Source: Anolis carolinensis
Taxonomy: Eukaryota
DNA length: 64,000 nucleotides
NCBI RefSeq assembly: GCF_035594765.1
Contig: NC_085844.1
Location: forward strand, 231,958,107 to 232,022,106
Reading direction: 5' to 3'
The position numbers and the translations under genes are program-made. Below the pieces are notes generated by a model, which had not been told where the DNA came from, searched no databases, and saw only the letters and a program-made list of their open reading frames with translations. Positions within the stretch are counted from its first letter, which is position 1. Every line of letters starts with the position of its first letter. This document shows positions 8,636-40,416 of the stretch, piece by piece.

Positions 8636-10890
8636 TTTACTGGGACAGAAAAGGGCCAGTCTCTGTGCAGACATGGTGATGTTTGGAAATAGCAGTAATC
8701 ATTGTTATTATATTATAATATTATTTTAATTTATATTTCATATCTGGCTATAAAAACTGGGACACATTACTGCAGGTAGTATGGATGCATTAGTGATCTG
8801 TGGAGCTCAAGGTTGATGCAAAGTTATCTTAACATTAAGACTGAACACAATGATGTTTGCATATGTGTGTGTATGAAAGCAGATATTTGAAACTTGGAAT
8901 GACTGAATATATTGATCAATTTGCTGATGAATGTGTTCAGTTTCAGCTTAGAAAATAAAATGCTAATTGTATTGCATAATGAGTGTTTCGAAAATAAATC
9001 AGCAAAACCAAAGGTCTGGCCGAGCTTCTTAGAGTAATTTGAAAGGATCCTACAGAATTATAAAGACTCTAATAAATACCGGTTTAAGGAATTTTGAAGA
9101 CTCATATAAATACATTAACTGTTTAAAACATTGCAGTCTTATATGCGTGTCTACTCAGTGTACTCACTGGGGCTTATATGCTATGGTAAATGGATGGAAG
9201 ATTGCAGCTTAAATATTGTAATTAATAGGGAAGTGATAAAATTATCACTGCATGTTACATTTCTACTGTCCATTGACTCACCAGCTGAGTGGTAGTGCTA
9301 TGCACTCACTTAAAATCCACTGATGAAATGGGGCTGGTTTACTTGAAGTTAGAAATTCGATTTTGACCCGTGAGAGTTTTTTCTTCTTCTGTATATGAGT
9401 TTAATTCAAGAAAATCACATAGGCTAAAGTGTATACTGATATTGTTTTGCCACAGTTCTACAGAAAAATAGAAAACATAGTTCTAGGTCTCTGAAAATTC
9501 CTTTATTGATGTTAAAGAGGAATTGTGTGCTAATAACCTTTAGCAAATCTCCAAAAGGAAGGCATTCTAGGGTTATTGAAATAACAAGATAGGAGATCAT
9601 CACCCAGAGCATGCTTATAAGACCATGTAGTTCAAAAAATATTTCATATGGGTAGGGTTGTCCTATTGCCCAATTGGCAGGTTTTATCTGAGTACTAGGC
9701 ATGCCAATACAGTGCTACATTAGACTGTTTGCTGGCCCAGATTCCAAGCATTGTATTTTTTAGAAGCAATAACAACAACAACAACAACAAATCTTTAGCC
9801 TTGTAGAAGCAGAGATAACAACCAAAATGTGTAGATACTATTCTGTACTATACTTTTATGAGATATAAGCCTTCCACTGCTTTTCTGCATGTTTTACCAA
9901 TTGACAGAAGTCTCAAAGCTATGGCTATGATTTTTCATAGATTTATCATTCCAGTTCTCTCCCAATTCACTGAGTAATTGTTGCAGTTTTGGGAATGAAC
10001 CTGGTTTTTAAGGAAACATCTAACTGAAGCCTGCTTTTCAAGTCTTGAAAAAATTGCACAGAAGCACTGGAGTCATTGGAATGACTGTGGTACAAGAATG
10101 TAACACAGCAGAGTAGAAACTGCTAATCCTAAAATACAATTATTAATATTTGTGTTACGCCGGAATGTATTGTTTTGGCTGAGTTGCTTTTTCTTGACAT
10201 ATTTGCTTGACATGTTTGCTTGCACATTTCCTTTATACAGTGCATTTTTAAGGAATTTCCAGGGGGAAAAACCTAATTTTTGTTACTAAGGGTAGCTTCA
10301 CTTCTCCCACTGTCTGATATGGGAGAAAAAAAACAGTCCTCCCAATTATTGCCACTTTGTCTCCACTTTTCTCCTTCTGTCCATTGCCTCTGCTTATTTT
10401 TACTTTTCTTATCTCTCTCTCTCTCCTTTCTGCTGCTCCATCTCTGCTGAACACGTTAAATTAAGGTAGCATGTTTGGTATGGATGTAAAGAAGGCATTT
10501 TCAATGTAACTACTTCCAAAAGGCAGTGAAACTGTTTCCGTTGCCCTTTTGCCTTTCAGGCAAGACATGTATTTTATTCAGGCAGGTTTTTGGGAATGGG
10601 CTGGCTACAGAGGAAGTGGATTCAAACTGATAGGTGCTCCATATTTCTTTTTCAACGTCTTCATTGCTGCTTTCCAGTTTTATAATTCTGTAATTGCTCT
10701 TTAAATATAAGTCATGTACAAACACGCATATTTATTTACAGTGAATGCCCCCAGGTCCTGAGATTTTCAGGTTCAAAGGTGGAATTGATGAATCTAAAAC
10801 ACCATAAATCAATAAAATAGACCAATAGATAGAACAAGAAGAAAAGCCATGATTCAGTGGCAGTAGTTGTTGCAGCTACTGGTAGTTGTG

Positions 10891-11151
10891 ATGCCTCATG
10901 GGCCCTGTAGTCCTGTTCCTAGTACTATTGTGGCAGATGAAGATGAAAACATGGGGTTTTCGCCGGTTCAACAAGAGCCGGAGTCTCTTCACCTGCCGGA
11001 TGTTGATGTTTGCTCTCAAGAATTCAGTAAAACAGGCCTTGGGCAGAACTCCCCTCCATTTCCCAGGAAAGAATCTTATTCTAGAGACAGAGGAGTTAGA
11101 GAGGCCCAACGGAGGAGTTTACGGATCGCTGCCAAACAACAGGCTGATTAG
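10891..11151 (+). CDS. Putative LTR(U3)-encoded 86-aa peptide, or C-terminal tail of a retroelement ORF, with an RRSLRIAAK motif (outer copy)
   Basis: Open from the first LTR base to a TAG shared with the inner copy; no indels; 14 synonymous-only versus 11 amino-acid-changing codons between copies (manual alignment). No expression evidence. Confidence 0.6.
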   Translation: MPHGPCSPVPSTIVADEDENMGFSPVQQEPESLHLPDVDVCSQEFSKTGLGQNSPPFPRKESYSRDRGVREAQRRSLRIAAKQQAD

Positions 11152-11188
11152 GCCTGCTTCCCTTGGGAAATTCTAAGGAGTCTTTGTG

Positions 11189-11449
11189 ATGACTCATGGG
11201 CCTTGTAGTCCTGTTCCTAGTACTATTGTGGCAGACGAAGAGGAAAACATGGGGTTTTCGCCGGTTCAGCAAGAGCCGGAGTCTCTTCACCTGCAGGATG
11301 TTGATGTTTGCCCTCAAGAACTCAGCCAAACAGGCCTTGGGCAGAACTCCCCTCCGTTTCCCAGGAGGGAAAATTATTCTAAAGACAGGGGAGTCAGGGA
11401 GGCTAATCGGAGAAGCCTGAGAATTGCTGCCAAACAAATGGCTGATTAG
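11189..11449 (+). CDS. Putative LTR(U3)-encoded 86-aa peptide with an RRSLRIAAK motif (inner copy)
   Basis: Same length, frame and stop as the outer copy; internal ATG at 11249 in strong Kozak context (AACATGG). Confidence 0.6.
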   Translation: MTHGPCSPVPSTIVADEEENMGFSPVQQEPESLHLQDVDVCPQELSQTGLGQNSPPFPRRENYSKDRGVREANRRSLRIAAKQMAD

Positions 11450-11534
11450 GTCTGCTTCCCTTGGGAAATTCTAAGGAGTCATGCATCTGGACAGAGTTGG
11501 GTTTCGCTTCTCGTTCTCTTGGGAAAGAGTTCTG

Positions 11535-11573
11535 TTGGCGGGAAAACGAGACCCAATATAGGTGTTTGGCGCG
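11535..11573 (+). promoter_or_regulatory. Putative LTR core promoter: E2F-type site, CCAAT/TATA-like box, E2F-type site
   Basis: TTGGCGGGAAAA (11535-11546), CCCAATATAGG, TTTGGCGCG (11565-11573). The first site and the box are conserved in the outer LTR (12107-12118 onward). Confidence 0.45.
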
Positions 11574-12714
11574 AGGGATTCTTTGCGGAGTCAATTGATC
11601 AGCTTGAGGAGAGAGATCGTGTGTGGACTTCGTAATCCCAGTTCCTTGCTTCCCGGATCAAGCTTCAAACCTTGCCCTGTCTCACGGTTTTACCACGGAC
11701 TCTGTTCATGCTTCATGTTCGTCTTGTCTCCAGTCACGGATCTAGTCAAGAATCAAGTTTATTTCCAGCCTTGTTGTCAAGCTTCATTGGACTCTAAGAC
11801 TCTGTTATTTCCCCACACTATTGCTTGGCAAAGTGTGTGTTTCGGTCAAGTGGATTAAAACTTTGAACTCTAATATCTTATATTGGACAATACATTTCTG
11901 GACTATATTTGACCTCATCTGAAAGGTCTGCTTCTGAACTATATTCTTCACTTGTTTTTATTGATTTTATATATTTCTTTAATAAAGATATTAGATAGAG
12001 ACTGGCCTCTGTGTAAGGTTATTGGTGCTCTGCAGCCAGGGACCTGACAGTCTTGCATCTGGACAGAGTTGGGTTTCGCTTCTTGTTCTCTAGGGAAAGA
12101 GATTTGTTGGCGGGAAAACGAGACCCAATATAGGTGTGTGGCGCGAGAGATTCTTTGCGGAGTCAATTGATCAGCTTCAGGAGAGAGATCGTGTGTGGAC
12201 TTCGTAACCCCAGTTCCTTGCTTCCGGATCAAGCTTTCAAGCCTTTGCCTTGCCTTGCCGTGTATCCACGGACCCTGCTCCACGTTTCACGTTTTGCCTT
12301 GTTTCTAGTCACGGACCTAGCCAAGAACCAAGTTTATTTCCAGCCTTGTTGTCAAGCTTCATTGGACTCTAAGACTCTGACATTTCCCCACACTATTGCT
12401 TGGCAAAAGTGTGTGTTTCGGTCAAGTGGATTAAAACTTTGAACTCTAATATCATTTATTGGACAATACATTTTTGGACTATATTTGACCTCATTTGAAA
12501 GGTCTGCTTCTGAACTATATTCTTCACTTGTTTTTATTGCTTTTTAATATTTCCTTAATAAAGATATTAGATAGAGATTGGCCTCCGTGTACGGTTATTG
12601 GTGCCCAGCAGCCAGGGGTCTGACAGTAGTTTTTGTAAAGTTCGGTCTAAACCTGAGAGACAGTTCACTATCTCACTGATATGGAATCCATCATTAAAAA
12701 GTTCCAGTTTCTAT

Positions 12715-37854: not shown

Positions 37855-39646
37855 ACTCTTTGTTTTCCTTTTTACAGAAGAAATACACATGTGTTACTCA
37901 AAGTTATAAGCACATATGTCATTCATAGGATTCCAGCCAATATTTTTCAGTGAATTCTGTTCCTAATCAGTCATCTCAGGATGAATGTACCTGGCACAAA
38001 GAATATTTCCTGGCCGTTGTGGTGATAATTATCATGTGATAATGCTGTGGTTTAATTACCATGTGATAATGACTGTGACAAGGAACATCCTTTAATTGAA
38101 CAATGTACCCTTAATTTGTTAACCTGAAATGCCAGTGATTGAAACTCTTCTTGCCAAGTAGCAAGAAGACAAGGTGGATCTTCAGATTTAGAGATACTCT
38201 CCAAAGGAGAACAGCGCACAGGCATGGGCTACCAGCTCTGATTTTGGAGACCAAATGTGCTACAGTAGAACAAAAAATTAAATGGTAGAAAGACCAGAAG
38301 TTTCAAGTGTGAATGTGAGGACAATTCAAATTTATATTCCAAGACATTGTTCTCATTAGTAAATTATTTGATTCCAAACTTAGAGCTCATCTTATGTGGG
38401 CATGATAACTCATACACACACACGAGTTTGATCCTGGTTGTTTTCACAATTTTCCTCCACCTCCAGTAGGTATTCCTGCTTCTTTTTGATCGTGTGGGCA
38501 ACTACTGGTGTCTGAATGAGATGCCCATGGCGACCAGGACTCACATAGAGCTCTGCTGAAGTTTGGTAGCAGTGAAGGCAATATGGATGGTAAAGTGACA
38601 ATCCAGCAGGGTTGATGCAGTCTCAGACCAACTGGACTAGCTGGACTCCAACTCACCATTGGGGACAGTGTGGGTAACTGCCTCTGGACTAACCCAGACT
38701 GCCTGACAAGTGTAGAAGCAATGTAAGTCCTACTTAGAATAGGACCATTGATCTATTAATCATAACTAACTTAACTCCCACTGATTTCCATGGGTTTTTT
38801 TTCCCTGAAGAAACCTGGTAACAACACTCCAGTTGTCTCAAGTGTTCCCAATTATGATTGTGATTTAGGGATTAGGGAATGAAATGTTTGTTAAAAGGAT
38901 TATTAAACAAAAGTGAATTTGGCAAATTGATATTTAGCATTCTTGGGCTGCTTTTATTGTGTGTGGGATTGCTGTTTTATGTTTTCTTCCAGTGGATTTG
39001 GTTTTTAGGTAATTTTATGTGAGTGTAACAAGGATGCTATTTTATTACATAGGTATATTGCTTCATGTACATTGTGAAGGAACATGCCATTAAGAATACT
39101 TCAATATTCCAGTTGCTAAAATATGTGGAAAATTTGAAAATAATAAATGTCACATTCATATTTTAAATTTATATTGTACTCAGGCATACAAAAGGTTCCC
39201 TCTCTTGTTCCTTAAGGCAGATAGGGGGCAATGTAGTCCACATGACATTCAGTTGTGAGTACAAAAAACAGAAAAAGGCACACACACGGAGGCTAGGTGT
39301 CTGGTATTAAACTGAAAATTGCCATCATACATTGCACTCAAAGGATGCCAAAAATGGTCACTACTATATGTCAGCACCAATACGTTTTTTTTTTTTTAAA
39401 AAAGCAATCAAGAAAAATTGGTCACCTCAAAAGAGGCTGAAAGATGATGTGGGTTTGCATTTTAAATAAAAAATTTCTACAATTACATATATATTAATTA
39501 AACATTATTTTTCAAGTACAAGTGACTAACAATTCTAAATTATAACCATGAACCAATCAACTTCTTAATATTTTGAAACTTAAAATAGTTCTGCAGTACT
39601 GTGACCAATACCGGCTCAGTCTGATGCCCCAAAGCCAACTAGCCAA

Positions 39647-40416
39647 CAAGATACTTCATTTCGGCAGAAAAAATGGAAATCAAAGATACAGAATGGGGGA
39701 CGCCTGGCTTGACAGCAGTGTGTGCGAAAAAGACCTTGGAGTCCTCGTGGACAACAAGTTAAACATGAGCCAACAATGTGATGCAGCAGCTAAAAAAGCC
39801 AACGGGATTCTGGCCTGCATCAATAGGAGTATAGCGTCTAGATCCAGGGAAGTCATGCTCCCCCTCTATTCTGCCTTGGTCAGACCACACCTGGAATACT
39901 GTGTCCAATTCTGGGCACCGCAGTTGAAGGGAGATGTTGACAAGCTGGAAAGTGTCCAGAGGAGGGCGACTAAAATGATTAAGGGTCTGGAGAACAAGCC
40001 CTATGAGGAGCGGCTTAAAGAGCTGGGCATGTTTAGCCTGCAGAAGAGAAGGCTGAGAGGAGACATGATAGCCATGTACAAATATGTGAGGGGAAGTCAT
40101 AGGGAGGAGGGAGCAAGCTTGTTTTCTGCGGCCCTGCAGACTAGGACACGGAACAATGGCTTCAAACTACAGGAAAGGAGATTCCACCTGAACATCAGGA
40201 AGAACTTCCTCACTGTGAGGGCTGTTCGGCAGTGGAACTCTCTCCCCCGGACTGTGGTGGAGGCTCCTTCTTTGGAGGCTTTTAAGCAGAGGCTGGATGG
40301 CCATCTGTCGGGGGTGCTTTGAATGCGATTTCCTGCTTCTTGGCAGGGGGTTGGACTGGATGGCCCATGAGGTCTCTTCCAACTCTACTATTCTATGATT
40401 CTATGATTCTATGATT
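39647..40416 (+). mobile_element. Young 5'-truncated CR1 LINE (RT C-terminal region and 3' UTR)
   Basis: Uninterrupted frame EKDLGVLVD...[19 protein letters not shown]...[12 protein letters not shown]...WNSLP to the native stop at 40320-40322; (ATTCTATG)n tail; CpGs retained. Confidence 0.97.

Follow-up and report, generated by a model that had tools for sequence, protein, structure and literature searches.

The chromovirus Amn-ichi of Anolis was reportedly described by Piskurek et al. V-clade chromoviruses (Amn-like and Sushi-like elements), with Amn-ichi among them, are described in PMC2774666; judged by that description, they share with the element treated here a gag gene, the Pol order of protease (PR), reverse transcriptase (RT), RNase H (RH), integrase (IN), GPY/F module and chromodomain, long terminal repeats (LTRs) of the TG...CA type and 5-bp target-site duplications. 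The element in question is a Ty3/Gypsy chromovirus of Anolis carolinensis, and its LTR occurs twice in a 64,000-nucleotide stretch of contig NC_085844.1 (positions 231,958,107 to 232,022,106, forward strand), referred to below as the window. Each of these LTRs carries a 261-nt open reading frame (ORF), which constitutes the end of Pol: the frame crosses the polypurine tract and terminates within the 3' LTR. The Anolis families thereby add to the V-clade plan an LTR-encoded extension of 83-97 residues past the chromodomain, whereas most fungal and amphibian relatives end 5-30 residues after it. No description of this Pol tail was found in the literature searched on chromoviruses, Anolis and squamates; the original description of the Anolis element may already mention an overlap of Pol and LTR.

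A comparable architecture is known from plants. In CRM group A retrotransposons, Pol extends into the 3' LTR and encodes a targeting domain there, the CR motif (PMC3059260). Compared by description, the same read-through of Pol into the 3' LTR occurs in the Anolis element, but the CR motif replaces the chromodomain, whereas the Anolis tail sits behind a type I-like chromodomain, in which the three aromatic cage positions, as defined in PMC3059260, look intact from the sequence. Moreover, CRM group A elements are centromeric and belong to plants, while copies of the Anolis element, in a lizard host, are spread along all large contigs.

Another set of described systems concerns the terminal motif of the tail. 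HMGN2 and Dsup bind the acidic patch of H2A-H2B through RRSAR and RRSSR, respectively, as seen by cryo-electron microscopy, and the HMGN nucleosome-binding motif reads RRSARLSA (PMC12487698). Yeast Dot5 carries RRSARIAT, in which R6, R7 and R10 are required for nucleosome binding (PMC13347269). In prototype foamy virus, an arginine anchor on Gag tethers the incoming retroelement to the acidic patch of nucleosomes and affects the choice of integration sites (PMC12125541). The Anolis tail ends in RRS[LA]RIAAK, which has the pattern R-R-S-x-R-[LI] in common with the HMGN and HMGN-like motifs; its core R-R-S-x-R is present at 125 of 130 loci and recurs in the lizard Podarcis, within RRSARLKA. The Anolis motif differs from these in its place on the C-terminus of a retrotransposon integrase, in the Leu at position 4 in three families and in giving no match to the HMG14_17 profile. 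The foamy virus anchor has a different motif, lies on Gag and was shown experimentally; in Anolis the anchor would lie on integrase. No description of an HMGN-like motif on a retrotransposon integrase was found in the literature searched, whose coverage excludes most subscription journals.

The continuity of the ORF with Pol is directly visible in full-length copies of the element. In all three that were examined, two carrying the inner LTR type of the window (L031 and L032) and one the outer type (L063), the integrase frame stays open beyond the chromodomain, crosses the polypurine tract and enters the 3' LTR, where it ends at the stop codon of the window ORF. The open stretches that finish in the tail measure 356, 803 and 1173 residues in L031, L032 and L063, respectively. 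A Pfam scan of the frames of L032 recovered the order PR-RT-RH-IN and placed RNase H, integrase, SH3_Tf2-1 and Chromo upstream of the tail, and in protein P0001 the chromodomain follows the GPY/F module at the C-terminus of integrase (PF00385, E=9e-10, and PF24626). The earlier note on this DNA had offered two possibilities, an accessory protein or the C-terminal tail of Pol/integrase, and had suggested following the frame upstream through the polypurine tract; it does run into integrase in L031, L032 and L063, and the second possibility is the one that stands. It is practically certain that the ORF encodes the last 87 residues of the Pol/integrase polyprotein.

The same arrangement is retained in five families of this genome, designated I (inner type), O (outer type), C, D and E, whose tails measure 87, 87, 97, 92 and 83-84 residues, with the motif in the Pol frame throughout. 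The in-frame junction between the polypurine tract and the LTR terminus TGTGATG was present in all 58 loci listed among the 60 of families C and D, and also in family E. Complete tails were found at 30 of 30 loci in family C and at 26 of the 28 listed in family D, these loci having been selected by protein match, and most listed copies of family C have an open frame of 1261 residues. The content of the full-length copies, gag followed by PR-RT-RH-IN-SH3-chromodomain, identifies a Ty3/Gypsy chromovirus, and the LTR pairs of three full-length natural copies are 99.0-99.5% identical, which means that the families are young. Genome searches gave 3152 and 2613 first-look candidates, 40 of which were scored in each case, and an exact 5-bp target duplication flanks 45 of 48 solo LTRs, with a near match at the remaining three. 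The window LTRs belong to a young, high-copy Ty3/Gypsy chromovirus. Its nearest named proteins are UniRef models of Anolis carolinensis, with 62-95% identity over chromodomain and tail, in which the tail is present but unannotated, and the nearest named relatives are squamate, amphibian and fungal chromoviruses.

Selection on the encoded protein can be judged from the two window ORFs (10891-11151 and 11189-11449, plus strand). They are equal in length, free of indels and closed by the same TAG, and the 3' halves of the LTRs differ by five indels of 1-2 nt each, much as the earlier note had stated. Its codon counts were also reproduced: 14 codons with synonymous changes only against 11 with replacements, nine against one in codons 66-83, and the double synonymous changes TTA/CTG and CGG/AGA. 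Third positions hold 17 of the 31 base differences. The ratio of nonsynonymous to synonymous rates (dN/dS), calculated in all six frames as that note had proposed, is 0.19 in frame and 0.23 in the antisense frame with shared third positions, while each of the remaining four frames gives a value of 1.14-1.82. In 3000 neutral simulations, at least 14 synonymous codons were reached in 0.1-0.3% of cases. When the mutation spectrum was measured on the non-coding portions of related LTRs (29 and 26 sequences), the expected synonymous share was 0.29, against 17 of 31 observed (p=0.003), which supports the claim that a real, selected polypeptide is encoded within the LTR.

Four of the 25 differing codons (42, 45, 56 and 79) are not differences between the commonest codons of the two subfamilies, which leaves 12 synonymous against nine replacement codons. 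Rare variants inside subfamilies I and O are likewise enriched in synonymous changes (22 of 47 against the expected share of 0.29, p=0.009). A contrast of fixed with rare changes gave no separation, the ratio between subfamilies being 12:9 and the singletons of I and O comprising 24 synonymous changes, 25 replacements and one stop; this contrast is probably flat since the rare variants, drawn from 30 of thousands of copies, stem from replicating lineages. The first 55 codons (10891-11055 against 11189-11353) have a synonymous rate (dS) of 0.06-0.12, compared with 0.24-0.38 in the remainder of Pol and 0.65-1.3 in the last 31 codons, which suggests either that subfamilies have recombined there or that U3 is constrained at the level of DNA. 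Taken together, selection at the protein level on the tail is held with high confidence.

Constraint is unevenly distributed along Pol. In a comparison of L032 with L063, gag, PR, RT, RH and most of integrase have dN/dS values of 0.05-0.15, and the chromodomain has 0.09. The tail has 0.32, with a fall from 0.69 in the first 55 codons to 0.21 in the last 31. The linker between chromodomain and polypurine tract reaches 2.1, and the SH3 part shows no synonymous but seven replacement changes; single-copy damage, recombination or DNA constraint related to the polypurine tract may account for both. Across the five families (10 non-independent pairs), the ratio of nonsynonymous to synonymous differences per site (pN/pS) is 0.09 in the chromodomain and 0.10 in the nine-codon RRS[LA]RIAAK motif, where pS is near saturation (0.80), compared with 0.52-0.55 in the remaining tail and 0.96 in the linker. 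At every one of the eight invariant motif residues, the codons used by five natural copies differ synonymously. The tail is thus under moderate constraint overall and under chromodomain-level constraint at its terminal motif. The earlier note was right about purifying selection in codons 66-83, yet the HMGN-like motif inside that stretch had escaped it.

The motif is intact at 125 of 130 loci, with 83 reading RRSLRIAAK, 42 RRSARIAAK and five carrying one changed residue; 60 of these loci came from queries that contained the motif. By family, RRSLRIAA is found in I, O and D, and RRSARIAA in C and E, where seven of eight residues are identical to those of Dot5 RRSARIAT. An HMG14_17 match in the same genome (L197) reads QPQRRSARLSA. 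Outside the last 140 residues of the collected proteins, a redundant set, RRSxR occurs once in 141,213 residues. In all five families the first part of the tail is acidic and the last 30 residues are basic, with a net charge of +5.

The parallels with HMGN, Dsup, Dot5 and foamy virus Gag lead to a reading of the tail as an acidic linker that ends in an acidic-patch anchor. Only full-length RNA, with U3 at its 3' end, would yield the tail, which would remain on integrase after proteolytic processing. It is likely a disordered acidic linker with a basic terminal motif, and RRS[LA]RIAAK would act as an HMGN-type arginine anchor on the H2A-H2B acidic patch; it would tether the integration complex to nucleosomes, and the chromodomain would read methyl-lysine alongside it. 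By analogy with the proven motifs, such an anchoring role is slightly favoured, and the chances that it provides a second chromatin tether beside the chromodomain are likewise a little better than even. In its full form, this reading holds that squamate chromoviruses, from anoles to lacertids, gained a second chromatin reader on integrase by extending Pol into U3, that this reader mimics HMGN and allows bivalent engagement, and that an exon ready for nucleosome binding is present in thousands of solo LTRs; we give it a probability of about 0.5.

Several observations weigh against acidic-patch anchoring. The proposed binding role is based on a resemblance of eight residues, and the Leu at position 4 in the window subfamilies (RRSLR) is absent from the three proven motifs. 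Pfam, HMG14_17 included, gave no match with five tail queries (E<=10) or with the two window ORFs (E<=1), and an alignment of the motif against PDB sequences gave none either. The first 55 codons of the tail are weakly constrained (dN/dS 0.40-0.69). In family E, eight of 11 listed copies are out of frame or stopped before the motif; the frame is lost within the G-run of the polypurine tract in six of the 11 and kept to the motif in three, so copies without the tail exist; slippage, assembly error or spread in trans may explain the G-run losses. Among wider relatives, R[RK]SxR past the chromodomain occurs in only three of 113, and the Podarcis tail, known from proteins alone, aligns weakly with that of Anolis (best pairwise E 3e-4). 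A complex prediction of the 40-residue tail end with the genome's own H2A and H2B carries no weight on either side: it scored 0.01 with the controls likewise unfolded, and AlphaFold 3 fails on HMGN2 as well (PMC12487698).

The chief rival of the anchor reading is that the basic end of the tail serves as a bipartite nuclear localisation signal, composed of RR or RK and, 13 residues later, RRSxR. This spacing is fixed in families I, O, D and E, which counts against the anchor, and integrase C-termini often bear import signals, as in Ty1. Family C, however, has RH at the upstream position, RRSxR is without the Lys that motifs for the major site of importin-alpha usually have, and the Ser, Ile and both Ala residues of the motif are invariant though import signals do not need them. 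Import alone appears unlikely, though the two roles are not exclusive and both could hold.

Somewhat less probable still is a merely basic end that binds DNA or RNA non-specifically, or a motif that docks to another host factor, with the likeness to HMGN being coincidental. The net charge of +5 in every family would fit, and P0048 (Crotalus) and P0050, whose acidic tails have a basic end, lack RRSxR, which also speaks against the anchor. Charge, however, explains neither an invariant RRSxRIAAK with saturated synonymous sites nor the recurrence of the motif in Podarcis. Among the 113 relatives whose chromodomain can be aligned, most stop 5-30 residues after it and 30 extend beyond 40, many of these being fused gene models. 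One of the three with R[RK]SxR is Podarcis muralis P0021 (62% over integrase and chromodomain; two variants), the nearest of the tail-bearing relatives outside the anoles; it has an RGDGVM junction like that of the Anolis element, an acidic stretch and a PRRSARLKA end. An acidic tail with this end is present in four of 14 listed members of the Podarcis cluster, the four whose model reaches that far, and a gene model (P0160) with a Podarcis-type tail ahead of Gag suggests that the tail is LTR-encoded there too. A HMMER search over 1.84 billion representatives gave four matches, three with family sequence and one to an unrelated repeat protein.

HIV nef and MMTV sag overlap U3 as well, and they are separate genes expressed from spliced RNAs. 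A stand-alone accessory protein of this kind, translated from the first or second ATG or from a spliced RNA, is very improbable here, since the Anolis ORF forms the last part of Pol, without an intervening stop. An ATG at LTR nt 5 is present in all families, but it belongs to the TGTGATG terminus of the LTR, and the second ATG, from which the earlier note had envisaged a shorter product, is replaced by Leu in families C and D. The likely transcript start also lies in the wrong place. The sequence just past the 5' LTR (1617-1630 in full-length L031) is complementary over 10 nt to an LTR site that follows a TATA-like box by about 30 nt. For families I and O this site is at LTR nt 401, for D at about 418, for C at 430 and for E at about 400; in family E both partners are changed together (11 of 13 LTR sites and three primer sites, one with an extra mismatch). 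Self-priming of this type is the arrangement of Tf1/Sushi elements, and the complementarity would be its signature in the five families and would mark the probable transcript start. This start would lie 135-145 nt past the ORF stop (LTR nt 253-295) in all five, so the ORF would be wholly within U3, and only full-length RNA would contain it, at the 3' end. Together with the Leu substitution, its position upstream of the TATA-like box and the putative start argues against a nef- or sag-like gene. The UniRef models P0008, P0009 and P0016, in which other sequence is attached to the tail or to its first part, would favour a separate protein, but they are unverified predictions.

Accidental read-through, with the synonymous excess caused by promoter constraint or mutation bias, is equally improbable and largely refuted for the last 31 codons. 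In its favour, the low dS of the first 55 codons hints at constraint on DNA or recombination, but the signal is frame-specific, holds in spectrum-calibrated tests and includes double synonymous changes and frame-keeping length changes.

The LTR tail, or the start of it, is present in four database gene models (P0008, P0009, P0016 and P0017), among them a cation-transporting ATPase; these may be annotation artefacts or cases of exonisation. Contigs from four presumed-RNA runs span the region, and they are uninformative on start sites, strand, splicing and translation.

In the window itself, the two ORF copies belong to two nested solo LTRs of different subfamilies and not to the ends of one element: the repeat order is A A' B' B, and no element-internal sequence was found in the window. 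All features are on the plus strand. The outer LTR (subfamily O) is flanked by the 5-bp duplication GTAGT (10882-10886, repeated at 12626-12630) and is split into a 5' part (10887-11184), broken 29-33 nt past the stop codon, and a 3' part (12055-12625). Its orphaned tail sequence (10891-11151), in frame with Pol in L063, includes RRSLRIAAK in codons 74-82 (11110-11136), comparable to the HMGN and Dot5 motifs in PMC12487698 and PMC13347269. The inner LTR (subfamily I; 11185-12049, 865 nt, TG...CA) shares about 99% identity with the best of its copies elsewhere and is flanked by GTCTT (11180-11184, repeated at 12050-12054). It contains the second tail copy (11189-11449), in frame with Pol in L031 and L032, with RRSLRIAAK at 11408-11434. 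Judged by position, it also has a TATA-like box (11555-11562, LTR nt 371), the 10-nt complement of the primer-binding sequence (11585-11594), which would be the transcript 5' end and self-primer, and a probable AATAAA polyadenylation signal (11981-11986), with outer counterparts at 12127, 12157-12166 and 12557. As both tail copies are remnants in solo LTRs, their translation from their own promoter is not expected. Elsewhere in the window, a 256-residue open frame (39552-40322) resembles the 3' end of a CR1-type long interspersed element.

Around the insertion sites of L002-L135, the flanks show a weak pattern of G/C-rich duplication ends followed by an alternating A/T bias. No ten-base periodicity was detected across 141 insertion flanks, at low power (p=0.28; control family p=0.50). 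A sixth Gypsy family (L136-L165), which is young, lacks a chromodomain and has a single frame of about 1600 residues, SH3_Tf2-1 and short LTRs, ends Pol ahead of the polypurine tract at 30 of 30 loci. This tail-less family provides a natural control for targeting.

How LTR retrotransposons of vertebrates gain access to chromatin and choose their sites is poorly known. If the motif were an import signal only, the tail would amount to a minor point of annotation in a type of element already known. In either case, solo LTRs can hold selected coding sequence, which gene predictors splice onto other models. If the motif does bind the acidic patch, the small set of HMGN-like motifs would be enlarged, and the Anolis element would offer a retrotransposon integrase that mimics HMGN and, in a vertebrate, a counterpart of the targeting domain that centromeric elements of plants encode in their LTRs.
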